A stretch of DNA of 64,000 nucleotides from an uncultured cyanobacterium. Lineage in GTDB: Bacteria; Cyanobacteriota; Cyanobacteriia; PCC-6307; Cyanobiaceae. Positions 4,738 to 51,933 of the stretch are shown piece after piece. The notes below the pieces were generated by a model. The model was not told where the DNA came from. It was given only the letters and a program-made list of their open reading frames with translations, and searched no databases. Positions within the stretch are counted from its first letter, which is position 1. Every line of letters begins with the position of its first letter. Position numbers and translations under genes: made by a program. Where the stretch lies: contig CAVONQ010000014.1 in the NCBI GenBank assembly GCA_963697335.1, positions 32,001 to 96,000 of the forward strand, written 5' to 3'.

Positions 4738-6078
4738 TCACGCGTTGATCAGTTTCCAGAACCCCCACTTCGCCCCAAAGCTGTCATAGAGGCGCTCAAC
4801 ATAGGTGGCATGGTCAGGATGGCCCTGCCAGTCATCGATGCGGGCCGCCAGCAGTTCGCAGGTTCGGAGGTGCTCGGCTGCATAGCGGTAGCGCTTGGAG
4901 CGGCCCATCCACAGCGCGAAGAACACCATCGGCCGTAGCAGCAGCGTGGCCGCCAGGGGATGGTCGGCACTGAGGCGCTCGGCAGCGGCGCTGTGAATGG
5001 CGTAGGCATCGCCCTCCCACTCGTCCTCATGGGCCAGCACATGGCGGGCGGCACGGGGGAGGGCTGGCCATTCCACCAGGAAGTGCAAGCCCAGCAGGCT
5101 CACGGGATGCTTTTCGGCCACCTCCAGGGCCCGCTCTTCCGCTTCCACATCCTCAAAGGCTTCAAGGCGCTTGAGGTAATCGCGCAGGTGCGGGATCGAG
5201 AGCGTCCTGCTGAACCACTGCCAGCGCATCTCTTGGGCTTCCGCCTGCCGGCTCAGGGCCTCGAGCACGGCGATGCGGCTGTCGTGCCACTGCGAATCCT
5301 GAAGACCGGCGGCGTCTTCTGTGGCTCCATCGAGGATCTCCAGGGCCTGCTCAGGCCGCCCGGACGTCAGCAGGAGTTGGGCCACGCCTGCGGCGATGTC
5401 GCGCCAGCGCAGATCCTCGGCATCGAACTGGGCCAGGTAGCCCTCCACATCCCCCCGGGCCACAGCGATCTGGAGAAGCTGGGTGTCGCCGTCGCGAGCG
5501 CCGTGCTGGCGGCAGTAGCTGCCCAGCAGCTTCAGGCCCCAGTCGCCCAGGGCGTCTTTCAGCGCTGGCACCAGCGCATCGAACTGCTCATAGGTGTTCT
5601 CGGCCAGCAGCTCGGCGGCCTGCTGCGCCAGGGTTTCTGGGTCCAGCTGGGCCGCCTGGGCCAGCAGTCCCAGCTGCCCAGCGGCCCGCTCGAACACGCC
5701 GATCACCGCGCCGGTGCTGTCTGAGCTGCGCTCCAGCACACCCTCGGAGAGTTCAAGGAACCGCAGCAGGAGATCGCAGGCCTGCTTTGGGTCGCCGGCC
5801 GCGATCGGGCCTGTGATCGCCTGGAGCTGGGCTTCCAGATCACTCACCAGCGCCTTGCGTCTGGCCGAATCCACAAAGGTGCTGGCCCGATCGATCGCAG
5901 TCAGACGTTTGCGCACCTCCTGAGCGGCACCGTCGATCCCCTCGGCAGTGGCCAGGGCAAGGCGCAGTCGCCGCTGGATCACGGCGTTGCCACCGCTCAC
6001 CTCGATCAGCAGTTCCGCCAGCGCTGCAGCCCCCAGGGCTTCCAGGTTCCTGGCGTTGAGGGTGCGCTTGCTGGCCAT
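4738..6078 (-). CDS. Conserved helical hypothetical protein (DUF6880-like)
   Basis: 446 aa; MASKRTLNARNLEALGA.. start and RSKRYRYAA..L motif resemble this family. Confidence 0.7.
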   Translation of the reverse strand: MASKRTLNARNLEALGAAALAELLIEVSGGNAVIQRRLRLALATAEGIDGAAQEVRKRLTAIDRASTFVDSARRKALVSDLEAQLQAITGPIAAGDPKQACDLLLRFLELSEGVLERSSDSTGAVIGVFERAAGQLGLLAQAAQLDPETLAQQAAELLAENTYEQFDALVPALKDALGDWGLKLLGSYCRQHGARDGDTQLLQIAVARGDVEGYLAQFDAEDLRWRDIAAGVAQLLLTSGRPEQALEILDGATEDAAGLQDSQWHDSRIAVLEALSRQAEAQEMRWQWFSRTLSIPHLRDYLKRLEAFEDVEAEERALEVAEKHPVSLLGLHFLVEWPALPRAARHVLAHEDEWEGDAYAIHSAAAERLSADHPLAATLLLRPMVFFALWMGRSKRYRYAAEHLRTCELLAARIDDWQGHPDHATYVERLYDSFGAKWGFWKLINA

Positions 6079-6232
6079 GGGCTACGTCAGGGCAGGTTTC
6101 AGACACCAGGGCCATGGCAGCCTGCTGCAGCTCAACGCCGCCCTGCAGCAGTCGATCAAACAGCTCGACCGCCGCCTGGCGTGCCTGCGGGCTCAGCAGG
6201 GCGATCAGCACGCTGGTGTTGAGGGAGATCAT
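6079..6232 (-). pseudogene. Truncated PIN/VapC toxin remnant
   Basis: MISLNTSVLIALL resembles the PIN start (xxDTSV with D->N); about 50 codons only; follows AbrB-like gene. Confidence 0.55.
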
Positions 6233-6245
6233 TGACGGCCCTCCA

Positions 6246-6495
6246 TCACCAGCGCTCACTGATGCGGCAGGCCTCGATCACCGCTGGGGTGAGGGGGAGG
6301 GTGGTCTGCAACTGGCGCAGATCGGCCACAAGAGCGAAGCGATCCAACCGCTGCACAGGCTCCAGGCTCAGTCGGCCGTCGGGTCCAACGACAATCTCGA
6401 TCTGATCGCCCTCCCTCAGGCCGGCCTGACGCAGGCATTCGGCTGGCAGCCGCACCGCCAGGCTCTTGGCCCAGCGGCGGATCACCTGCTGGAAG
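6246..6495 (-). pseudogene. AbrB/MazE-type antitoxin, start codon unclear or degraded
   Basis: QQVIRRWAKSLAVRLPAECLRQAGLREGDQIEI matches the AbrB/MazE pattern (WGNSLAVRLP). Confidence 0.7.
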
Positions 6496-6822
6496 CGCCG
6501 GCCGGCATCAACACAATGGTGACCCGGCTGGGACTGCGCCAAAGAAGCCAGCTCGGCCGCGGCCGGCCTGTTGTAGATGACACTATTTTACATTGGCAGG
6601 TGGTGGCTTCCATCTTCTCAAGGTGCCACTGCAGCGGCCCCCGTCCCGGGTAGAGCACCAGCGGGCCACCGGTCGGTCACAGCAGCCGGCAGCTGGCGAG
6701 GTTGATCGCCTACGCCAGGCCTTACATGAATGGGGAAATCTGCCAGGCCTGCGCCGTGCGCGTAGTGGGGATCCTGAGGGGCCGACACACACGCTGGCGT
6801 GAACCAGCACCTTATTTTCCGA

Positions 6823-7374
6823 CTACATGTCTTCTGGAAATGCGCGGAAATAGTCGGCGCGCAGCTCATCGTGATAACCCCAGCCAATAGGGACCGAAGA
6901 CCTCATAATGGCTTCCAGTCTCACTTTGAACGCGTCCCGGCTTGCGTCGGGCAAGCTGCAAACCTTTTCGATGGCGCGATGATACATCAGGTTAAGGGCA
7001 GCATAAAATCCTTGATCGATATCGCCGTAGTCGATCGTCAAAGCGTTTCCTTGCTCCACGAAAAAAGTCATCAGCTCCGCCTCTCCCCATGCATCGCCGA
7101 CGGCCTTGCTGTAGTCAGCGATGGCTTTTTTGGCTTTTGCAATCTGAATGGGCTTGTTCTTTTGGACATCCGGGTACATGCATTCGTTGATGATTTTCTT
7201 GTAGAACTCCAGCGGGTTCTCAACGACCGCCAGCCGGGCATGCAGAAAGGCCTGATTCTCCTTCGAGAGACGATAAAGGTCTGCAACCAAGTTGACCAGT
7301 TGAGGCGCATCCAGCTTCATGGCCTTTGCCTTGACGTCTGACCAGGATGCCCCAGCTTTGTTCCCTTTCCTCAT
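6823..7374 (-). CDS. Hypothetical protein, probable integron cassette ORF
   Basis: 183 aa, lower GC, starts 26 nt after the GTTAGTA core of an attC-like site. Confidence 0.8.
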   Translation of the reverse strand: MRKGNKAGASWSDVKAKAMKLDAPQLVNLVADLYRLSKENQAFLHARLAVVENPLEFYKKIINECMYPDVQKNKPIQIAKAKKAIADYSKAVGDAWGEAELMTFFVEQGNALTIDYGDIDQGFYAALNLMYHRAIEKVCSLPDASRDAFKVRLEAIMRSSVPIGWGYHDELRADYFRAFPEDM

Positions 7375-7400
7375 GGGCTATGCCTTTCTTTCCTGCCTAT

Positions 7401-7525
7401 TACTAACGTTTGAGCTAAGCGGGGACGACGCCAGGACGCCAGGCCCGCGCGGTGCAGCATGTACCCCGGCCCCGCGCAGGCCTGGGGACCTACCGTTGGC
7501 GCTCCGCTTGAGCGAGGGGCCAGGC
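7401..7525 (-). mobile_element. attC-like site (about 125 bp) with degenerate R'' box
   Basis: Minus strand: GCCTGGC-CCCTCGCTCAAGCGG...CCAGGCCTGCGCG...CGCGCGGGCCTGG...CCGCTTAGCTCAAAC-GTTAGTA; imperfect palindrome, GCTCAAGCGG/CCGCTTAGC pair with one extra base. Confidence 0.8.
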
Positions 7526-7611
7526 CTCACCTTTAGCGTCCGTGTCGCGGTGCGGTGTGAGCTTAGTAGCATAAGTAAACATAGAATCAAATTTTTCTGT
7601 AGATCGTCACG

Positions 7612-8304
7612 ATGGTGAGAACTGTGAGAAAGCTGTTCGCTTGCCTTAATGGCGCACTTGCTCTCGTGACATGGTTCTTTCACGAGGCCATCAGGTCTTG
7701 GTTTTTCGATAAAGTGGTTCAGCAAATGAACTCCGTCGAAGCGGACTTGATTCAGTACGGCCCCCCGGTAATCTTTGCGGCGATCTGTATTTGGCTGCTC
7801 GTCGTGCCACGCCAGACGAGACATCCGGCTAAGGGTGCTGGGATCGATCGTCCGGTGGGGGAGAAGCCAGCGCTGAAGCCAACGATGTCTGGAGGAAGCA
7901 TATTTGAACCTGGCGCGCCAGACATGGCCAAGAGCCATACTGGAATTGCGATAAATGCGAAAGTCTGGAACGTTGGGGGTGCGTCCGTGGCGACGAGTTG
8001 GGCCTTGAAGGTCATCATTCCCGGTCGCCTTCCTGTGTCGGGCCAGTTGACTCAAATACCCGACTTTCTAAGTCTTAGCGGTGCCATCAATAGTGTAGTT
8101 ATTCGGGGTGACGACGCGCTTGACAGGAAGGTCGCAACGGAAGTCATTGGTGGCACGCCGATTGAAGGGACTCTGCTGTTCTACGTTCCGTTGCCGCGAA
8201 GTGCAGTGATGACGCCCGACACTGTTCTTAAACTATCGTTCAAAGACATTCTTGAGGTCCAGACAGTGAAGGCGCAGCGTCTTGGCGATTGGAAGCATCG
8301 CTAG
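7612..8304 (+). CDS. Hypothetical membrane-anchored protein (two N-terminal TM segments), inverted relative to the cassette array
   Basis: 230 aa ORF, lower GC, between attC-like and attI-like sites. Confidence 0.65.
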   Translation: MVRTVRKLFACLNGALALVTWFFHEAIRSWFFDKVVQQMNSVEADLIQYGPPVIFAAICIWLLVVPRQTRHPAKGAGIDRPVGEKPALKPTMSGGSIFEPGAPDMAKSHTGIAINAKVWNVGGASVATSWALKVIIPGRLPVSGQLTQIPDFLSLSGAINSVVIRGDDALDRKVATEVIGGTPIEGTLLFYVPLPRSAVMTPDTVLKLSFKDILEVQTVKAQRLGDWKHR

Positions 8305-8349
8305 CGAAGGCGTTCGGATTGGGTGCGTGATTGGACGTAGAGATGCGAG

Positions 8350-8492
8350 GTCTAACTTATTCTTCGGCGGTTTCCGTGCACCACTCCCAAAGTCAAATCT
8401 CTTTCCGATAACCAACCGTAGATCATGGACTGCGTGGGTGTGAACGGTTGTGATTGCAGTGGTTTTCAGCTGATTCCCTCAAACCGTAGGAC
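8350..8492 (-). mobile_element. Putative attI-like site
   Basis: Minus strand CTACGG...CTACGG...CACGGAAACCGCCGAAGAATAA-GTTAGAC; same end layout as 45604-45630. Confidence 0.45.
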
Positions 8493-14170: not shown

Positions 14171-16270
<2,100 letters not shown>

Positions 16271-43899: not shown

Positions 43900-45360
43900 A
43901 TGACCCGCACGATCACGATCGATCCCGTGACCCGCATCGAAGGGCACGCCAAGATCACCCTCCACCTCGATGGGGCCGGGCGCCTGGCCGATGCCCGCTT
44001 CCACGTGGTGGAGTATCGCGGCTTCGAAACCTTCTGCGAGGGCAGGCCATTCACCGATATGGCCGGGATCACGGCCCGCATCTGCGGCATCTGCCCGGTG
44101 AGCCACCTGCTGGCGGCGGCGAAAACCGGCGACAAGCTGCTGGCAGTGCAGCCGCCGCCGGCGGCGCGCCAGTTGCGGCGGCTGCTCAACCTGGCCCAGA
44201 TCTGCCAGAGCCATGCGCTCTCGTTCTTTCACCTGAGCAGCCCTGATTTCCTGCTGGGCTGGGAGAGCGATCCGGCGCGGCGCAATGTGTTCGGCCTGAT
44301 GGCCGCCGATCCCGATCTGGCCCGCGCCGGCATCCGGTTGCGACAGTTCGGCCAGCAGGTGCTGGAGCTGCTGGGGGGCCGCAAGATCCATTCGGCCTGG
44401 GCCGTTCCCGGCGGCGTGCGCACGCCCCTGAGCGCTGAGGCAAGGCAGTGGATCCTGGAGCGCCTGCCGGAGGCGAAGGCCACGGTGGCCATGGCCCTGG
44501 AGCTCTACAAATCCCTGCTGGATGGTCCGCTGCAGCGGGAGCAGAGCAGCTTCGGCGATTTCCCCTCGCTGTTCATGGGGCTGGTGGGGCCTGGCGGGCG
44601 CTGGGAGTGCATCGACGGCCTGATCCGCTTCACCGGCAGTGACGGCCGGATCGTGGCCGATGGCCTCAGCGAAGACGACTACGCCAGCTACCTGGGCGAG
44701 GCGGTGGAGAGCTGGAGCTACCTGAAATTTCCCTATTACAAGCCGCTGGGCTATCCCGAGGGGATCTACCGGGTGGGGCCACTGGCGCGGCTGAATGTGT
44801 GCGACTCGATCGGCACCCCCTGGGCCGACGCCGAACTGGCCGAGTTTCGCCAGCGCAGCGGCACTGAGGAGAGCGGCAGCCGCATCGTGACCTCCTCGTT
44901 TGCCTATCACCACGCCCGGCTGGTGGAGATCGTGGCCTGCCTGGAGGGGATCGAGCAGCTGGTGGCCGACGACAGCCTGATGGGCGGCCGCATCCGTGCT
45001 CGCGCCGACCTCAACGCCAACGAGGCGGTGGGCGTGAGCGAGGCACCGCGCGGCACCCTGTTTCACCACTACCGGGTGGATGACAACGGCCTGATCACCC
45101 GGGTGAACCTGATCATCGCCACGGGCCAGAACAACCTGGCCATGAACCGCACCGTGGCCCAGATTGCCCGGGAGTACTTCCCCGAACGGGTCGCCGACGG
45201 CGCCGAGATCCCCGAGCCGCTGCTCAACCGGGTGGAGGCGGGCATCCGCTGCTTCGATCCCTGCCTCTCCTGCAGCACCCATGCGGCGGGGCAGATGCCA
45301 CTGCACATTGAGTTGCGGGATGCGGGAGGTGAGTTAGTCGCGGAGCGGTTGAGGGATTGA
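43900..45360 (+). CDS. hoxH: [NiFe] hydrogenase large subunit HoxH
   Basis: [24 protein letters not shown] plus cleavable C-terminal tail. Confidence 0.97.
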
Positions 45361-45458
45361 GGGGTGGGCACCAGGGGTCAAGCCCCACGGCTGAGGAACC
45401 TCCCTCAAAGAGTCCACGCTCTTGCCTGGGATGGCAGCGGTACTTGGCTGTGTAGTCG

Positions 45459-45630
45459 CGTGAACGGTCTTATGCGGACCCGCATAAGACGCAAGGGCCT
45501 CGAAGTGGCCACCCAGAAGCCGCTGCGATCAAAGGGCTCTTGTAGTGTGGCCCTGAGATGGGGGCGCTCTTATGCGGCTGCAGGTAGATGGGGTCAGATT
45601 TTATACGGGTCCGCCCAATCAGCGTTAGCC
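45459..45630 (+). mobile_element. Array-leading recombination site (attI-like, or unusually long attC)
   Basis: TCTTATGCGG twice, palindrome TCTTATGCGG-AC-CCGCATAAGA, ends TTATACGGGTCCGCCCAATCAGC-GTTAGCC; core complementary to the next attC R''. Confidence 0.65.
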
Positions 45631-45676
45631 AAATGAACAGCTCCCTGCTCTTAGTGCATTTCTAGAGGATGGACTT

Positions 45677-46372
45677 ATGTTTCCAGCTTATTCACTGAAT
45701 GAAGTCTTGCGCGAGATTGCCACAGCCTTTAGATCTCGCTACCAAAAAGAAGACGGTCAAAGAGTTCGCATGGTCGGGCTGCTATTTGCCCCACCTGGCG
45801 CGGCAATTAGTAAAGCCGAGATACTGCCTCGCCTTGATGACTTTCATCATCGTTCAGGGAACAACATCGATTTCTTCTGTGCAGGTTATGGCGCTTATTG
45901 GCCAGAGAGCTGGGTTTCCGATGCACAGCCAGTAACAACTACTACTGACCCCAGACTTGGCCTAAAGACAGATTGGCTTTACAGTTCAAAATACTTTCAC
46001 GACTTTCGCAAGGAGATAGAATCTACGGCGAAAAGCTGGAAATATAGTGGCGAGGTTGATCTTGTCTTGTTAAACGCCTATCCAGATACCGATGATCTGG
46101 CCAGACTCGATTTCACAGGTGCTGTTGTACTACGTATTGACCAGCTAAGAAACGATAAATTGATCGAGTCTGCACCTAAATTGCTCGAAAAGATCTTTCG
46201 TTATGCCGAAGTGCAAAGAGGGGATGATCCGACATGGGGTTTTAGTGATGAGATGGGATTTAAGGAGGGCCGTTCCTGGTTTGTAGAACTAGTTCTGTCT
46301 CGGCTCCCTCTGAAAACAGGAGAATTATGGAAGAGAGGGAGTCACTATGCCGTTTTAAATCTTACCCAGTAA
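45677..46372 (+). CDS. Cassette 1: hypothetical protein
   Basis: 231 aa, AT-rich, GAGG RBS, bounded by GTTAGCC and attC. Confidence 0.85.
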   Translation: MFPAYSLNEVLREIATAFRSRYQKEDGQRVRMVGLLFAPPGAAISKAEILPRLDDFHHRSGNNIDFFCAGYGAYWPESWVSDAQPVTTTTDPRLGLKTDWLYSSKYFHDFRKEIESTAKSWKYSGEVDLVLLNAYPDTDDLARLDFTGAVVLRIDQLRNDKLIESAPKLLEKIFRYAEVQRGDDPTWGFSDEMGFKEGRSWFVELVLSRLPLKTGELWKRGSHYAVLNLTQ

Positions 46373-46437
46373 AATGCTCGCATGGGAGAACTCGTCTATT
46401 CTATTGCTCACCACTATTGCAGCCAATTCCGCATTCT

Positions 46438-46527
46438 GGCTAACATCACCATTCACCAAAGCCACCGCCGAGAGGATTCTGGTTATCTCAGAAACTCCCT
46501 CCGGACTGGTGATGATGGGCGTTAGCC
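46438..46527 (+). mobile_element. attC site 1
   Basis: GGCTAAC...CATTCACCA...TGGTGATG...GTTAGCC; 90 bp, L boxes pair with one extra base. Confidence 0.88.
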
Positions 46528-46559
46528 TATGCGCAATTAAGACATGTTAATTCAAACGG

Positions 46560-47339
46560 ATGGCCAAGAGAAAACCACATTCGCTTGAATCACTTTCTGA
46601 TCGGGGCAGGCGACTGCTGCACGATTCGCATGATCCCACCGGAACACACAGTGAGTTTGAGAGCTGGGACCACGATGTTGCCAAATGGCTGGACACGGAA
46701 TTTCCTGACAGAGGGTTCTCCGCTCAATGGTCATCCATCTCCACGTCGCCGCTCGTTTTGGGAGGTTACTACAACGATGACCCAGGGTCATGGGCTGCCT
46801 TTCGAACTGCTGTGCAACGCCGCCTAAAATTTCTCAGCGAGGTAATACAAACGAAGTCGCATCGACCACCGACACGCACTAGTGCTACAGACACTAGACG
46901 GGTATTCTTGGTACACGGTCATGATGAGGCGGCTCGTGAAAAGGTCGCTCGATTTCTCGAAAAACTGGGGTTTACACCCATCATTCTCCACGAGCAACCA
47001 AACATGGGGCGGACGATTATCGAGAAATTCGCCGACTATTCCGATGTTGCTTATGCCGTCGTATTGCTAACGGCTGATGATATTGGCGGCACGAAAGACA
47101 CAAACGCAAATCAACTTGCAGCAAGAGCAAGGCCCAATGTGCTTTTTGAACTTGGCTACTTCATTGGCAAACTGGGTCGTGATCGCGTCTGCGCCCTCCA
47201 TGAAACAGGTGTCGAGATCTTGTCAGATTACAGTGGCGTGCTTTACGTGACATTGGATGTGACGAATGCTTGGCGCCTACATCTGGCAAGAGAAATGAAA
47301 GCCGCGGGGCTTCCCGTAGACATGAACAAAGCGATTTGA
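46560..47339 (+). CDS. Cassette 2: TIR-like nucleotide-binding domain protein (Cap12/PycTIR-type domain) with unknown N-terminus
   Basis: VFLVHGHD, PIILHEQ, TIIEKF, AVVLLTADD, ARPNVLFELGYFIGKLGR, SDYSGV. Confidence 0.9.
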   Translation: MAKRKPHSLESLSDRGRRLLHDSHDPTGTHSEFESWDHDVAKWLDTEFPDRGFSAQWSSISTSPLVLGGYYNDDPGSWAAFRTAVQRRLKFLSEVIQTKSHRPPTRTSATDTRRVFLVHGHDEAAREKVARFLEKLGFTPIILHEQPNMGRTIIEKFADYSDVAYAVVLLTADDIGGTKDTNANQLAARARPNVLFELGYFIGKLGRDRVCALHETGVEILSDYSGVLYVTLDVTNAWRLHLAREMKAAGLPVDMNKAI

Positions 47340-47422
47340 TTACCGGCTAACAATGAAGTCATGTTCAACTGCATGCCAGTGAGGAAATGAGGGAATTTAT
47401 GAACCTAAGTCGTTCCTGGCTA

Positions 47423-47515
47423 GGCTAACAAGCCCCTCGAGTGGACAGGCCGCCACTAAACTCTCTGCTAAGCCACCCCAAGTTCCTTGCCTGCCACTCA
47501 GGGGCAGCGTTCGAA
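47423..47515 (+). mobile_element. attC site 2
   Basis: GGCTAAC-AAGCCCCTCGAGTGGACAGGC...GCCTGCCACTCAGGGGCAGC-GTTCGAA; two extra-helical bases. Confidence 0.9.
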
Positions 47516-47801
47516 GGGTCAAGCCATTTCCTGAAGGATGTTGGAAGAAGATCTTTGGTGGCCTGAGAAGCGGTCTGCCATGGTAGAGAGTATAGCCCGT
47601 CTTGAAAAGCAGTTCGCAAAGTTGTTAGGAGGACTTTGTTATCTCAGGAGAATGTCAAGATTCTAATCTAGGTATGAGCTCCTTCGCGACGGAAATCCAG
47701 CAGATGCTTGGTCTGCAGGCAAGAGCTCTGCTCCACTCGCTGAAGACATCGTTAAATTTCCTCTCTGTTCACTGCATGGCGCTGCGATGGGGGCATAACA
47801 G

Positions 47802-49841
47802 ATGAAACGCCTCGTTTACATGACAAGCCCCCGCAAGAGCAGATCCGCTGCAGCATCAGCATCAAGGCAGCGCGTTTCGGCAGCGCCCACGATGGAATCC
47901 GGCGGCGTGGAGCGGCGCCTCACCGCACGACCCGACAGCGTTGACTTCCGGGATCTGATGTACGTGCCAACGTTGGTGGAAGTTCCACCAGAAAAACCGA
48001 TCGCCGACTATCGAGCGCTCGGCATTCCGGTGCTTGATCAGGGCAGTGAAGGCGCCTGCACGGGCTTCGGGCTTGCAACTCTGGCCAACTACCTGCTGGC
48101 CACCCGAAAAAGCCAGCCTGATTCGGAATCGGTAAGTCCGCATATGGCCTATAGCCTCGCCCGCCGTTACGACGAATGGGCCGGAGAGGACTATGACGGC
48201 TCCAGTTGCCGCGGTGCCATGAAAGGGTGGCACAAGCACGGAATCTGCACCAAAAAGCTCTGGACGAAATCGAGTCCGGCTAACAAGGGCCTCACACAGA
48301 GCGTGAGTGCTGATGCAGCCAAACGACCGCTTGGTTCCTACTTCCGGGTCAACCACACCGATTTCGTCGCCATGCACGCGGCGATCACGGAGGTGGGTGT
48401 GCTCTACGCAAGCGCCCGAGTTCATGAGGGATGGCAAAAAGTGGACAGCGATGGCCGCATCCATCCAAGCGACATCCCGCTCGGTGGTCACGCCTTCGCG
48501 ATCGTTGCCTATGACGCCGATGGCTTCTGGATCCAGAATTCCTGGGGGCCGACATGGGGGAATGAAGGGTTCTGCCATCTCGGCTATGCCGACTGGCTAG
48601 CGAATGGCAGTGATGCCTGGGTGGCCCGCCTGGGAGCGCCGGTGTCCATGCGATCCCCCGAGGGCACGGCTACGGGCCCGGTGGGCGCTGTTCGATCGAA
48701 CGCTTTCCAATACAACCAGATTCGCCCCCATGTGATCAGTTTGCGGAATGATGGTCAGCTCGATCCGCACGGCAACATCGCGACCACAACCGACCTGCTG
48801 GGGGAGATCATCAATCAGGATTTCATTCGCATCAGCGAGGGATGGAAGCGGCGACGGTTGGTGCTGTATGCCCACGGTGGGCTGGTTCCCGAAAATGCGG
48901 CGCTCCAGCGGACATCCGAATTCCTTGAGGAGATGCTACCCAAGGAATGCTATCCGCTGGCATTCATCTGGAAGAGCGATTATTGGAGCACCCTGCGCAA
49001 CATTCTCGAGGAAGCCACTCGCCATCGCCGCAATGAGGGTTGGATCGATGCGACCAAAGACTTCATGCTCGATCGCCTTGATGACGCGCTGGAACCCGTA
49101 GCACGTCATCTCACCGGTAAAGCGCAGTGGGACGAGATGAAAGAGAACGCTCAGCGCGCCACCACCTCGGCCCGCGGTGGCGCACGCCTGCTCGCCGCCG
49201 AGTTGGCGAAGCTGATGGCGAAGGAGCCCTCCATAGACCTCCATCTGGTGGCCCACAGTGCCGGCAGCATCCTCCATGCCCATCTGCTGCGTCACCTCAC
49301 GGAAGACCTTGGAATTACCGTGGCGTCCTGCACACTCTGGGCACCAGCCTGCACCACTGAGCTCTTCGAAGCCACGTATCTCCCTGCCCTCAAGAGTGGA
49401 CTTCTGCAATCTCTCCATCTCTACACTCTCAGCGACGTGGCCGAACAGAATGATCACTGCGCCCGCATCTACAACAAGTCCTTGCTCTATCTGGTGTCGC
49501 ATGCCTTTGAGGAACATGTGCGGATACCCCTGGTCGGTCCCCATGGAGAACCACTGCTTGGCATGGAGAGGTGGATCAAAGCAAACCCTGATCTGGCCAG
49601 ACTCTTCAGCGGGAGTTACCCCGGCGTGAGCTGGACCCGCTCACCGAACGACGCTCCGTCCGATTCACCATTGGCGGCGCGTGCCACCAGCCATGGAGAC
49701 TTCGACAGCCGCCGCTTCCATGTCGTGACATCCACTATCGCCCGCATCCGGGATGATGCCGTCACCTCGATGGAGGTAAGCCGGCTCCAGCGCACAGCGG
49801 CATCTCGTTCGGCACGCCGTGGAATCCTGAATGATCTCTGA
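47802..49841 (+). CDS. Cassette 3: C1 (papain-like) cysteine peptidase fused to an alpha/beta-hydrolase-like domain
   Basis: DQGSEGACTGF, GGHAF, QNSWG; C-terminal YAHGGL and HLVAHSAGS. Confidence 0.85.
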   Translation: MKRLVYMTSPRKSRSAAASASRQRVSAAPTMESGGVERRLTARPDSVDFRDLMYVPTLVEVPPEKPIADYRALGIPVLDQGSEGACTGFGLATLANYLLATRKSQPDSESVSPHMAYSLARRYDEWAGEDYDGSSCRGAMKGWHKHGICTKKLWTKSSPANKGLTQSVSADAAKRPLGSYFRVNHTDFVAMHAAITEVGVLYASARVHEGWQKVDSDGRIHPSDIPLGGHAFAIVAYDADGFWIQNSWGPTWGNEGFCHLGYADWLANGSDAWVARLGAPVSMRSPEGTATGPVGAVRSNAFQYNQIRPHVISLRNDGQLDPHGNIATTTDLLGEIINQDFIRISEGWKRRRLVLYAHGGLVPENAALQRTSEFLEEMLPKECYPLAFIWKSDYWSTLRNILEEATRHRRNEGWIDATKDFMLDRLDDALEPVARHLTGKAQWDEMKENAQRATTSARGGARLLAAELAKLMAKEPSIDLHLVAHSAGSILHAHLLRHLTEDLGITVASCTLWAPACTTELFEATYLPALKSGLLQSLHLYTLSDVAEQNDHCARIYNKSLLYLVSHAFEEHVRIPLVGPHGEPLLGMERWIKANPDLARLFSGSYPGVSWTRSPNDAPSDSPLAARATSHGDFDSRRFHVVTSTIARIRDDAVTSMEVSRLQRTAASRSARRGILNDL

Positions 49842-50053: not shown

Positions 50054-50342
50054 CCTTCACAGAGCATCGTTATTGAAGAAGCAGATGGAGGTGCGGCCTT
50101 AACGCAGATGCACTGGGAGAAATCGCACGTGCACAAGGAATGACACTGACCGAGCTCCAGACTGGCCATGCGCGCAAAAGCCTCGAAATGACGTTTTAAG
50201 GTGCTGGCAGCCAAGGCATTGAGGAGGCCCCAAAGGTCATCCGTTCTCTGGCGTGAAGTTGGGCTGAAGTGTGCTCAAGGATTTTCCCCTGAGTTGCAGC
50301 ATCACGGCAAGAGTACAAGATGGTGGCAACATTACCGCGCCC

Positions 50343-50433
50343 TTCGAACACACTCTTAGATTGGACAGGCCACCCTCAGATCCCTACTACGCCCCCAAGG
50401 CTCCCTGCCTCCCACTCAAGGGGAGCGTTCGAA
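50343..50433 (+). mobile_element. attC site 3 (diverged)
   Basis: TTCGAAC...TGGACAGGC...GCCTCCCACTCAAGGGGAGC-GTTCGAA; same family as attC 2 and 4. Confidence 0.85.
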
Positions 50434-50470
50434 GGATGTGTCGTGCTTGAGGGGAGCCAGCAAGGCAGCG

Positions 50471-50499
50471 TTGCGCGGTCGTAGCCAGGAGGCTACAGT
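50471..50499 (+). promoter_or_regulatory. TA promoter with palindromic operator
   Basis: TTGCGC-17 bp-TACAGT overlapping GTAGCC-AGGA-GGCTAC. Confidence 0.7.
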
Positions 50500-50505
50500 T
50501 GGTGG

Positions 50506-50810
50506 ACGGTTGAAGTCCGCCAGGCAGAGCGGTTCGTCCGATGGCTTTCAGGTCTACGTGATCTGAGGGGCCGAGCGAAGGTTCTGGCCAGGATCGAGCG
50601 CCTCATCGGTGGTAATCCTGGTGACGTCAAGCCCGTTGGGGCAGGCGTGTCGGAGTTGCGGATCAACTACGGCCCTGGATATAGGGTCTACTACCTGCAG
50701 AAGGGAACTGAGTTGATCATTCTTTTGCTGGCGGAGACAAGAACTCACAAGCCAAGGACATTGATGAGGCCCTTCTGTTGGCAGACAACCTGACGGAGGA
50801 GACCTTATGA
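50506..50810 (+). pseudogene. Cassette 4: RelE/HigB-like addiction-module toxin, ACG in place of start and 1-nt frameshift near 50727
   Basis: VEVRQ.ERF..WL...RIERL..GNPGDVKPVGAGVSELRINYGPGYRVYY; GGDKNSQAKDI lies in another frame. Confidence 0.82.
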
Positions 50811-51115
50811 AAACCACGACCACTCCCTACGACGTTGCCGAGCATCTCCGCACACCTGAGGAGATGGCGGCCTACCTCGATGCCTGCATCGAGGAGGCGG
50901 ATGGAGATGCTGCCTTCATTGCCAAGGCCCTGGGCGACATTGCTCGGGCCCAAGGGATGACCCAGGTGGCCAGAGATTCCGGACTGTCCAGGGAGAGCCT
51001 CTACAAGGCCTTGTCTGGAGAGCGCAGCCCGAGCTTCGACACCATCCTGAAGGTGGTCACGGCCTTGGGTCTGAAGTTGAGCGCGAGTGTGAGAAGCGAT
51101 GCGGAAGTGACTTGA
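50807..51115 (+). CDS. Cassette 4: addiction-module antidote (HTH, HigA-like)
   Basis: ALGDIARAQGMTQVARDSGLSRESLYKALSG..SPSFDTILKV. Confidence 0.92.
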   Translation: MKTTTTPYDVAEHLRTPEEMAAYLDACIEEADGDAAFIAKALGDIARAQGMTQVARDSGLSRESLYKALSGERSPSFDTILKVVTALGLKLSASVRSDAEVT

Positions 51116-51168
51116 ACATTGCAGATGCGGCGTTGGTCCGCATACGCTGGCTATGGAGATGCGACACC

Positions 51169-51258
51169 TTCGAACAAGCCCCTCGAGTGGACAGGCCGCC
51201 GTCGAGTCTGCTTCGCGAGCTATAGCTTCTTGCCTGCCACTCAGGGGCAGCGTTAGCC
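51169..51258 (+). mobile_element. attC site 4
   Basis: TTCGAAC-AAGCCCCTCGAGTGGACAGGC...GCCTGCCACTCAGGGGCAGC-GTTAGCC; outer arms identical to attC 2. Confidence 0.9.
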
Positions 51259-51307
51259 GCATCAGATGCCGAGGCTGGGTAGACTGGAGATTGTCTCTTT
51301 GGTGGCG

Positions 51308-51541
51308 GTGCCAACAATCCTGAGGAGTGGGCCATACCGGGTCTATTTCCACAGCCACGAGCCTAATGAACCTCCTCATGTTCATGTTGATCGTGATCGA
51401 GCAAGCTGCAAGATGTGGTTAAATCCTGTCGCGCTGGCCTCAAGCCTGGGATTCAAGGCGGCAGAGCTTCGAGACATTGAGCGGCTTGTGAGTGCCAACA
51501 GGGCTATGCTGGTAAAAGCATGGGAGGAGTTTCATGGTTAA
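51308..51541 (+). CDS. Cassette 5: DUF4160 family protein (putative toxin)
   Basis: PTILRSGPYRVYFHSHE..EPPHVHV...K.WL...AWEEF. Confidence 0.88.
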   Translation: MPTILRSGPYRVYFHSHEPNEPPHVHVDRDRASCKMWLNPVALASSLGFKAAELRDIERLVSANRAMLVKAWEEFHG

Positions 51542-51794
51542 TCCTGGGGCGCGTGTCATGAACGTGAGTTCTACAGATGACGTTCTTGTTGTCGAGCTTG
51601 AGGACGGCAGAACTATTTCCGTTCCACTCGCTTGGTATCCAAGGCTGCTGCATGCGTCTCAGAAGGATCGTGATGACTGGCAAGTCGCCGGTGGTGGCTT
51701 TGGCATTCACTGGCCGACTATTGATGAGGATCTCAGCGTCGAAGGTCTGCTCCGTGGAGCACCAGCTCCCCGAGTCCGTGTGATGAGCAGCTAA
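51534..51794 (+). CDS. Cassette 5: DUF2442 family protein (putative antitoxin)
   Basis: LEDGRTISVPLAWYPRL..A...GIHWPTIDEDLSVEGLL; TAA stop lies in the attC R'' box. Confidence 0.9.
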   Translation: MVNPGARVMNVSSTDDVLVVELEDGRTISVPLAWYPRLLHASQKDRDDWQVAGGGFGIHWPTIDEDLSVEGLLRGAPAPRVRVMSS

Positions 51795-51891
51795 CACAGT
51801 CATGCACCTGACCCGCCACCGCAGATTCAATTCGCCCTTTGAGTTGCGTTCACCCCAGCTCTTTGCTGGCAGGTGACGGCAAGCGTTAGCC
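51789..51891 (+). mobile_element. attC site 5
   Basis: AGCTAAC...GCACCTGACC...GGCAGGTGAC...GTTAGCC; 103 bp. Confidence 0.8.
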
Positions 51892-51933
51892 CCCCCAAGC
51901 AGCTCGCAACCCATCAACTAGCCCTGTGTTGCC

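Follow-up and report, generated by a model that had tools for sequence, protein, structure and literature searches.

A PDC-S35-type TIR protein, most likely an NAD+-depleting effector, and a predicted thioredoxin-fold protein in separate integron cassettes behind hoxH of a picocyanobacterium

This work concerns two neighbouring open reading frames (ORFs), ORF1 and ORF2, in a stretch of 64,000 nucleotides (the window) from contig CAVONQ010000014.1 of assembly GCA_963697335.1, an uncultured cyanobacterium of the family Cyanobiaceae. A five-cassette integron array without an integrase is found directly after the hydrogenase gene hoxH, with ORF1 as cassette 1 and ORF2 as cassette 2. ORF2 is a full-length member of the candidate defence family PDC-S35 and, by analogy with better known TIR proteins, is most likely a single-protein abortive-infection effector that depletes NAD+. 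ORF1 belongs to an unnamed family and is predicted to adopt a thioredoxin-like fold that is redox-dead. Independent cassettes, an abortive-infection NADase in ORF2 and a separate thioredoxin-fold accessory protein in ORF1 together form the best explanation as a whole, which we regard as moderately probable. The features are given below by window position. R1 is a covariance model built from this genome's five attC sites, and dG is the folding free energy in kcal/mol.

45455-45627, + strand: attI-like element with three TTATGCGG-type repeats, ending in a GTT recombination triplet
45626-46521, + strand: cassette 1, 896 bp, from TTAGCC to the G of the attC1 R' box
45677-46372, + strand: ORF1, 231 amino acids, unnamed family, predicted thioredoxin-like fold without CXXC, C-terminal helical hairpin
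46436-46529, - strand (the bottom strand folds): attC1, R'' GGCTAAC and R' GTTAGCC, dG -18.2, z -2.9, 71.1 bits with R1
46522-47509, + strand: cassette 2, 988 bp
46560-47339, + strand: ORF2, 259 amino acids, PDC-S35-type protein
46584-46859, + strand: N-terminal domain of ORF2 (residues 9-100), four helices and a short hairpin, no known family
46899-47333, + strand: TIR domain of ORF2 (residues 114-258), with the E197 codon at 47148-47150
47344-47422, + strand: spacer after ORF2 with a second GGCTAAC box, bottom-strand dG -5.1, z 0.1
47421-47517, - strand: attC2, R'' GGCTAAC and R' GTTCGAA, dG -18.6, 87.7 bits with R1, genus-wide attC type

Both ORFs lie where an earlier reading, made from the sequence only (the sequence-only reading), had located them, and every motif that it quoted is present: LLFAPP, FHHRSGNNIDFFCAGY and WKYSGEVDL in ORF1, VFLVHGHD and NVLFELG in ORF2. 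They are real genes and not chance ORFs because of the number of their homologues. In a word-indexed search, 638 candidates were scored for ORF1 and 220 of them, mostly of full length, are homologues at E<=1e-3; for ORF2 the search gives 6860 homologues out of 8000 scored. Judged by alignment with their own families, both ORFs are intact and full length. Overlapping short ORFs (45699-45935, 46374-46550 and several on the minus strand) are regarded as artefacts. The host genome assembly comprises 2.58 Mb in 18 contigs and is 98.8% complete; the contig of the window is its contig C14. The named members of the 90%-identity cluster that contains HoxH are strains of Cyanobium and Synechococcus, which makes the host a Cyanobium-type picocyanobacterium. 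The hoxH gene ends at 45360 on the + strand and a low-GC stretch starts directly after it: the GC fraction in the window is 0.68-0.74 around the hox hydrogenase genes, compared to 0.49-0.60 from about 45.4 to 52 kb. Among 150 other genomes of the host's family, ORF1 is found in none and ORF2 in three. Both genes are rare and were acquired horizontally.

Each gene of the array is followed by a repeat of about 95 nt. Five of these sites align (46436-46529, 47421-47517, 50341-50435, 51167-51260 and 51787-51893) and share a bottom-strand hairpin; of its 30 pairs, 14 show compensatory changes. The consensus shows a short unpaired stretch after the outer stem and two single-base bulges in the inner stem, and the bottom-strand dG of the five sites ranges from -13.5 to -21.3 kcal/mol. 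An attC site is composed of R boxes, a central spacer that stays unpaired, L boxes containing extrahelical bases, and a loop of variable sequence. The shared hairpin matches this anatomy, and thus the repeats are read as attC sites. A stronger internal test, in our judgement, is given by the cassette ends. Every cassette opens with six bases complementary to the R'' box of the same cassette: TTAGCC in cassettes 1 and 2 (45626 and 46522), whose R'' box is GGCTAAC (46438-46444; 47423), and TTCGAA in cassettes 3 and 4, whose attC sites begin with TTCGAAC. The cassette boundaries are set by the crossover between G and TT, and homology with a complete genome of the same genus (G012) and with environmental contigs breaks off at these boundaries. 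The cassette reading of ORF1 and ORF2 is solid, and the proposal of the sequence-only reading that they are separate single-gene cassettes stands: each is bounded by attC, at positions 1 and 2.

Three other searches concern the sites themselves. The strict attC pattern RYYYAAC...GTTRRRY yielded no pair, because the boxes here are GGCTAAC/GTTAGCC and TTCGAAC/GTTCGAA. An energy-filtered hairpin scan of the whole window was dropped; it picked up only GC-rich hairpins in coding DNA. R1, run over the genome, finds just two further attC sites, at C16:1065-1171 and C9:7965-8055. The second GGCTAAC box (47344-47422) is located right after the ORF2 stop codon, 79 nt before attC2. It was rejected as an attC site, since no hairpin folds there, and it may be a remnant of an older site.

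The element upstream of cassette 1 is about 170 nt long, and one of its TTATGCGG-type repeats lies inside a perfect palindrome. Full-length copies are found in two genomes of the same genus, G012 (71%) and G159 (79%), and partial matches in eight more. In the alignment of the window with G012, homology is lost directly after the GTT of the element. Judged by these sequence features, the element may be an attI-type site that is no longer beside an integrase. On contig C14 no match to the integrase models PF00589 or TIGR02249 is found. An intact integron integrase of 370 amino acids is encoded on another contig (C16:4662-5597; TIGR02249 466 bits, cut-off 265), and a second copy at the start of contig C15 (5-680) is broken by a TAA codon. 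With intI on C16, the array is a CALIN-type cluster (a group of attC sites that has no integron-integrase) and not a complete integron. The two genes had been called array-proximal. This is correct in so far as they occupy the first two positions beside the conserved attI-like element; they do not lie beside intI.

Comparison with G012 gives evidence that the cassettes move as units. Its array is found at the same place, after its own hoxH. Its first cassette encodes a different protein of 459 amino acids that belongs to no known family, and its second is the TIR cassette, with 96% DNA and 98% protein identity (query 1147-2150, equal to window 46510-47513). This array lies in G012:C1:2172001-2190000 (locus L115) at 5939-8388, and attC sites are located there at 7311-7401, 8293-8388 and 14352-14443. 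The attC2-type repeat is present in 14 of 18 other genomes of the genus and in none of 12 genomes searched from other families. In lake water, cassettes 1 and 2 stand side by side and in the same order on two contigs (X1, 1984 nt; X3, 1641 nt) at about 98% identity, and X1 departs from the window sequence after 47510. In the contig X19 of an RNA library, cassette 1 stands behind a different flank and the match begins at 45624. The attC2 type (47423-47517) is very abundant in environmental data, with many different flanks in lake-water contigs and depths in the thousands on contigs of one RNA library.

These comparisons also bear on the question whether ORF1 and ORF2 form a two-gene system, in which the thioredoxin-fold protein would be a sensor, antitoxin or regulator of the TIR effector. 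The two genes are adjacent and co-oriented, and their order is kept in X1 and X3. As these two contigs may be close kin of the present genome, the adjacency there is not independent. Against such a system, a complete attC site separates the two genes, G012 has the TIR cassette behind its 459-residue cassette and lacks ORF1, and PF10137, the TIR family of ORF2, is found in none of the scanned neighbours at 92 loci with an ORF1 homologue. A joint system is very unlikely, and the two proteins probably do not work together. We retain two independent cassettes.

ORF2 had been presented as a candidate for a new anti-phage function. This novelty does not hold, because the protein matches the PADLOC model PDLC05005 (PDC-S35) from end to end (E 4.5e-75, 250.8 bits, residues 8-258 on profile positions 6-262 of 264). 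Four other PDC-S35 models match the TIR half only. The PDC families are 145 single-gene or multi-gene candidates, which according to the available part of the source were drawn from genes embedded in BREX, DISARM and type I restriction-modification loci (10.1101/2024.01.29.577857). ORF2 resembles PDC-S35 over the whole single gene and nothing structural sets it apart; the difference is its location in a picocyanobacterial integron cassette. Other parts of the sequence-only reading are confirmed. Its complete TIR-like domain corresponds to residues 114-233, which match PF10137 (CAP12/Pycsar TIR; E 1.8e-37, 128.4 bits, gathering cut-off 24.7) and include the catalytic Glu, E197, within NVLFELG. 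The approximately 110 residues that it could not assign have no Pfam match before the TIR domain. The AlphaFold (AF2) model of ORF2 (pLDDT 90.3, pTM 0.59) consists of the N-terminal domain at 9-100, a disordered linker at 102-108 and the TIR domain. Trp36, Trp57 and Arg88 are invariant in the N-terminal domain, which is presumed to be a sensor or regulator. The whole architecture is common to 101 of the 120 best homologues; in seven of the 120, a TIR domain of 59-70% identity is preceded by another N-terminal region, 75-180 residues long. These alternative N-termini fit a swappable regulatory module.

The catalytic residues are well conserved. Foldseek places ORF2 closest to the TIR domains of TIR-STING proteins (9lmq, E 1.3e-5, and 7un8), followed by SPARTA TIR-APAZ and DNPH1. 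In the sequence alignment with SfSTING, Arg191 corresponds to R78, Asn193 to N80, the catalytic Glu197 to E84 and Asp223 to D110; the SfSTING numbers are taken from the accessible text of PMC9402430. Arg191, Asn193 and Glu197 are invariant in 52 full-length homologues with the motif RxNxxFE, and Asp223 is nearly invariant. According to the same text, D110 of SfSTING completes the active site of the mate and helix alphaC is the core interface (PMC9402430). A two-copy complex prediction for ORF2 reaches a score of 0.69, with 0.00 for the best of three controls, and, as similar TIR dimers are already solved, this score may reflect likeness to the TIR-STING dimers. Of 30 proteins solved as pairs, 20 attain that mark, compared to one of 23 that were solved as single chains. 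At least 59% of contacts agree between the runs, with a partner pLDDT of at least 74. In the predicted complex, helix 192-204, loop 172-179 and residues 219-226 make up a symmetric interface.

In the best explanation, the two cassettes are independent units of an array that was inserted after hoxH in a Cyanobium-type picocyanobacterium, with the integrase of the genome on another contig. By analogy, a mechanism can be proposed for ORF2. The N-terminal domain of ORF2 would sense a phage cue or hold the TIR domain off. The TIR domains would then pair through helix alphaC and assemble further, so that Asp223 of one subunit would complete the active site around Glu197 of its mate. NAD+ would then be hydrolysed and the infected cell would no longer support phage growth. 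The accessible parts of two studies describe TIRs of the PF10137 class as NADases that act by oligomerising (PMC9402430; 10.64898/2026.04.30.722052).

The CBASS Cap12/TIR-STING proteins (SfSTING, 7un8; 9lmq) belong to the same PF10137 subclass and are the best sequence and fold match among solved structures. The equivalents of R78, N80, E84 and D110 are kept, and the predicted ORF2 dimer likewise forms through helix alphaC. However, ORF2 has no STING domain, its putative regulatory domain is N-terminal and helical, and no CD-NTase is found in the genome. PycTIR of Pycsar shares the Pfam TIR family, and a weak PADLOC PycTIR match to ORF2 is found (E 3.9e-8), but no cyclic-nucleotide-binding domain is detected in ORF2 and no cyclase gene in its cassette or in the array. 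The earlier observation that no cyclase or STING gene is nearby is thus confirmed: the other cassettes encode a papain-like/hydrolase protein, an antidote and a DUF4160/DUF2442 pair. Furthermore, no SMODS match is found in the 98.8%-complete genome, in which ORF2 is the only PF10137 gene. For Thoeris, TIR_2 matches ORF2 with E 0.067 and no ThsB model is among the PADLOC matches at E<=1; ThsA was not searched. Since the gene travels as a one-gene cassette, a conserved neighbour of ORF2 is not expected. Relatives of the ORF2 TIR domain are also common in viral or proviral contigs, with 167 stretches, a few of which extend over almost the full length at 31-39% identity.

Several points weigh against the effector assignment. 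The NCBIfam Cap12 models score only 39.1 and 37.1 bits on ORF2, both on its TIR part alone, far below the cut-off of 450, so that Cap12 behaviour is not simply transferable. PDC-S35 is a candidate by guilt of embedding, and in the available part of the paper its authors call the candidates untested (10.1101/2024.01.29.577857). Eight candidates were tested in a later study (10.1101/2024.09.26.614923), S35 not among them, and the name PDC-S35 was not found in the literature searched. In addition, the N-terminal domain shows no recognisable sensor fold; its Atlas scores are at most 0.87, a lead at most.

A TIR-fold enzyme with other chemistry or another role, and not an NAD+-depleting suicide effector, has to be considered here. 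It could be a ThsB-like signal producer with a distant partner, an N-glycosidase of the DNPH1/MilB type, or a growth-control toxin of a mobile element. The Foldseek list does contain DNPH1 (E 3e-3, TM score on the target 0.64) and SPARTA TIR-APAZ, and the N-terminal domain has no known function. Moreover, the accessible part of one study reports that NADase activity is absent in two of three amoeba TIR proteins of the PF10137 clade (10.64898/2026.04.30.722052). On the other hand, the equivalents of the SfSTING residues that bind and cleave NAD+ are all conserved, the closest structures are TIR domains of TIR-STING NADases, and PADLOC gives no ThsB match at E<=1. We consider other chemistry unlikely, and a single-protein NAD+-depleting effector remains the most likely role of ORF2.

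The expression of the array is uncertain, since it lacks an adjacent integrase or Pc promoter. No sigma-70-like promoter is found on the + strand in 45300-47900, a weak negative because cyanobacterial promoters fit the consensus of the scan poorly. These two points also count against an active effector. No terminator-like site is found on the + strand in the same interval either. The array lies on the hoxH strand directly after hoxH, so that read-through from the hydrogenase operon is possible. Short contigs of two freshwater RNA libraries match parts of both genes with two differences each (X19 at 45624-45894 and 46819-47103, X20 at 45685-45936); these contigs may stem from contaminating DNA and are not proof of transcription. 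The cassettes could be cargo that is stored but silent in a decaying array and serves no function for the host at present, as the missing intI on the contig, the missing promoter-like site and the broken second integrase copy of the genome would suggest. Both ORFs are nevertheless intact and full length for their families, ORF2 is 98% identical in another species, and the possible read-through and the RNA-library contigs (with their possible DNA carry-over) argue in the same direction. Silent cargo is clearly unlikely.

For ORF1, the sequence-only reading had found no family that it could name, and this is borne out: there is no Pfam, NCBIfam or PADLOC match. A search against PDB sequences gives nothing meaningful, and in the ESM Atlas only unnamed clusters are found. 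The family is large. A profile search of 1.84 billion representatives returns at least 1343 matches at E<=1e-3, 424 of them at E<=1e-30, and most members are 220-235 residues long. The motifs VRMVGLLFAPP, FHHRSGxxIDFFCAGY, WxYSGExDLxLxN and DPTWGFSD are characteristic of the family, and Phe67, Gly70, Tyr71, Trp100, Gly125, Leu129 and Pro211 are invariant.

The AF2 model of ORF1 is confident (pLDDT 86.6, pTM 0.85). In the VIA structure comparison, the 50 top rows shown consist throughout of proteins with the thioredoxin fold or of thioredoxin fusions. The best match has a Z score of 7.9 and a root-mean-square deviation of 2.8, with 109 of 111 residues of a whole thioredoxin aligned. A thioredoxin-like fold is accepted because these rows agree with each other and cover whole targets, and not because of the score. 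Two results stand against it. The match is borderline, as Z below 8 is common for unrelated pairs according to the note of the tool, and Foldseek against the PDB and viral models gives no match at E<=0.001, with weak peroxiredoxin and thioredoxin matches at E 0.05. The model superposes on whole thioredoxins, but it differs from the superfamily in lacking CXXC and a thioredoxin-like Pfam match and in carrying two additional elements, an inserted beta-hairpin at 84-102 and a C-terminal helical hairpin at 185-224. The segment after strand 31-37 reads APPGAAIS, and the only nearly invariant cysteine, Cys68, lies in a strand. From the order of the secondary-structure elements in the model, APPGAAIS would take the position of CXXC. 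The predicted fold is thus probably redox-dead, and a redox role is unlikely.

The genomic context of ORF1 was examined at 14 loci from named genomes and 78 metagenome loci, mostly on short contigs. The 14 genome loci include Acidobacteriota, Desulfuromonadales, Planctomycetota, Nitrospinota, Flavobacteriales, Pseudomonas and Calditrichaceae. An R1 attC match is found beside the ORF1 homologue at 13 of the 92 loci at E<=1e-3 and at 19 at E<=1. R1 was built from the sites of this genome only and probably misses other attC types. All 22 matches are in cassette orientation, and the 19 loci represent seven protein groups at 70% identity. Measured from the homologue, the matches are located 13-65 nt past the stop codon or 8-262 nt ahead of the start, except for two weaker or more distant matches and one frameshifted copy. 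The ORF1 family repeatedly travels as an integron cassette in several lineages. Mobile-element genes (integrases, a relaxase/coupling protein, Rep) are present at three of the 14 genome loci, and resolvases, transposases, integrases and toxin-antitoxin genes are found among the metagenome neighbours. No conserved partner emerges from 286 clustered neighbour ORFs, except within near-identical locus sets. ORF1 is a self-contained mobile accessory gene.

Some features of this context point to conflict systems. A defence-type or restriction-type gene lies within about 5 kb of the homologue at seven of the 14 genome loci: a UvrD/GajB-like helicase, a PDC-S15 FRG protein, Mrr, a PDC-M51A-like radical SAM protein, BglII with MT-A70, GmrSD, and a NucC-like protein with Orf5/HEC-06. 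Fusions are rare, and ORF1 homologues are joined to LRR (P0264, P0346), a CHAT protease (P0375), FRG plus SET (P0382) or a NuiA-like segment (P0110). LRR, CHAT and FRG/SET fusions are typical of conflict systems. One fusion is recurrent, in which a helical tail of about 160 residues leads to forms of 388 residues. The closest flanked relative (L029, 82% identity) is followed by an AIPR/AbiU-like gene. FRG (PDC-S15) genes are located directly upstream of ORF1 homologues at two unrelated loci (L008, 4802-5682; L042, 774-1616), and at L042 an attC site separates the FRG gene from the homologue. Only one viral contig encodes a relative of ORF1, which makes a phage-borne anti-defence role unlikely.

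Other results reduce the weight of these neighbours. Among the metagenome loci, 150 of 180 de-duplicated ORFs of at least 100 amino acids were scanned, and just 13 match PADLOC at E<=1e-8. Six of them are judged specific (AbiU/AIPR, IetA, PDC-S15, PDC-S48, a TIR and PDC-S07), so that about six of the 78 loci have a defence-type neighbour. Ordinary cassette or housekeeping genes, among them hydrolases, SnoaL and NifU, account for many of the other neighbours. As the ORF calling was crude and no background set was used, the defence-neighbour counts are a hint and not an enrichment. ORF1 may be unrelated to phage defence and be an ordinary accessory protein, for example a small-molecule binding or modifying protein or a chaperone-like stress protein, whose defence and mobile neighbours would reflect no more than its travelling on mobile DNA. 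ORF1 has no PADLOC match and no conserved partner, and 137 of the 150 scanned neighbours have no match at the same threshold. Integron arrays, the present one included, mix many functions, and the large number of invariant polar residues hints at an enzyme or a ligand pocket. The domain fusions, the restriction or defence genes at half of the genome loci and the AIPR/AbiU-like neighbour of the closest flanked relative speak against such a protein. It is a serious possibility that falls somewhat short of probable.

A conflict-related role of ORF1, in defence or immunity, is about as plausible as this and likewise not probable. Tentatively, ORF1 might be a self-contained module of conflict systems, in which the conserved face of the fold would bind a ligand or a client. 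A role in single-gene anti-phage defence specifically is doubtful. Equally doubtful is the broader proposal that the family is a new immune or counter-immune module, widespread and encoded by a single gene, with a redox-dead thioredoxin fold, which would be spread across phyla by integrons and other mobile elements, could be wired to LRR, CHAT or FRG domains and would need no partner gene. Of the original proposal of defence cassettes, the part on single-gene cassettes at positions 1 and 2 stands; the defence role of ORF1 is argued from context only and is no more than a lead. For ORF1 we retain a separate mobile accessory protein with a predicted thioredoxin-like fold.

The remaining cassettes were also inspected. 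Cassette 3 (47802-49841) encodes a protein of 679 amino acids with an N-terminal papain-like Peptidase_C1 domain (E 3.9e-6) and weak C-terminal similarity to alpha/beta-hydrolases (DUF900-like); this protein has no PADLOC match. Cassette 4 (50490-51115) contains an addiction-module antidote gene at 50807-51115 (dnstrm_HI1420, E 3.9e-30). A frame just upstream of the antidote resembles the matching killer protein and may be truncated; no + strand ORF of at least 50 amino acids is listed there. In cassette 5 (51266-51794) a DUF4160 gene and a DUF2442 gene overlap; such pairs are common in cassette arrays.

Kieffer 2025 and Getz 2025, known here solely as reference-list entries, reportedly deal with integron-borne defence. 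Many sedentary chromosomal integron cassettes encode anti-phage systems according to the available part of one study (10.1101/2024.07.02.601686), and integrons are already known to carry defence genes, as far as the accessible parts of two sources tell (10.1101/2024.07.02.601686; 10.64898/2026.03.17.712381). Our cassettes resemble the defence-carrying integron cassettes of Darracq 2025, Kieffer 2025 and Getz 2025 in being one-gene units bounded by attC with a defence-type gene. In what is accessible of them, those studies concern Vibrio and mobile class 1 integrons, whereas a small integrase-less cyanobacterial array is described here. A literature search on picocyanobacterial integrons found nothing directly relevant. 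ORF2 is a new PDC-S35 member in a new host and in a new kind of mobile context, and the finding extends the picture of integron-borne defence rather than changing it.

If ORF2 protects against cyanophages, this would be the first functional evidence for PDC-S35, of which more than 6860 relatives were scored. ORF2 would then represent a TIR NADase of the CBASS type that works through a built-in N-terminal sensor instead of a cyclic-nucleotide signal. The family of ORF1, unnamed in current annotation libraries, is a well-defined target that comprises at least 1343 clusters and has a confident model and distinct conserved motifs, and it could be included in screens of integron cassettes. If the proposed role of ORF2 is true, the integron store of defence genes established in Vibrio and class 1 integrons would extend to picocyanobacteria, which are major primary producers of fresh and coastal waters.

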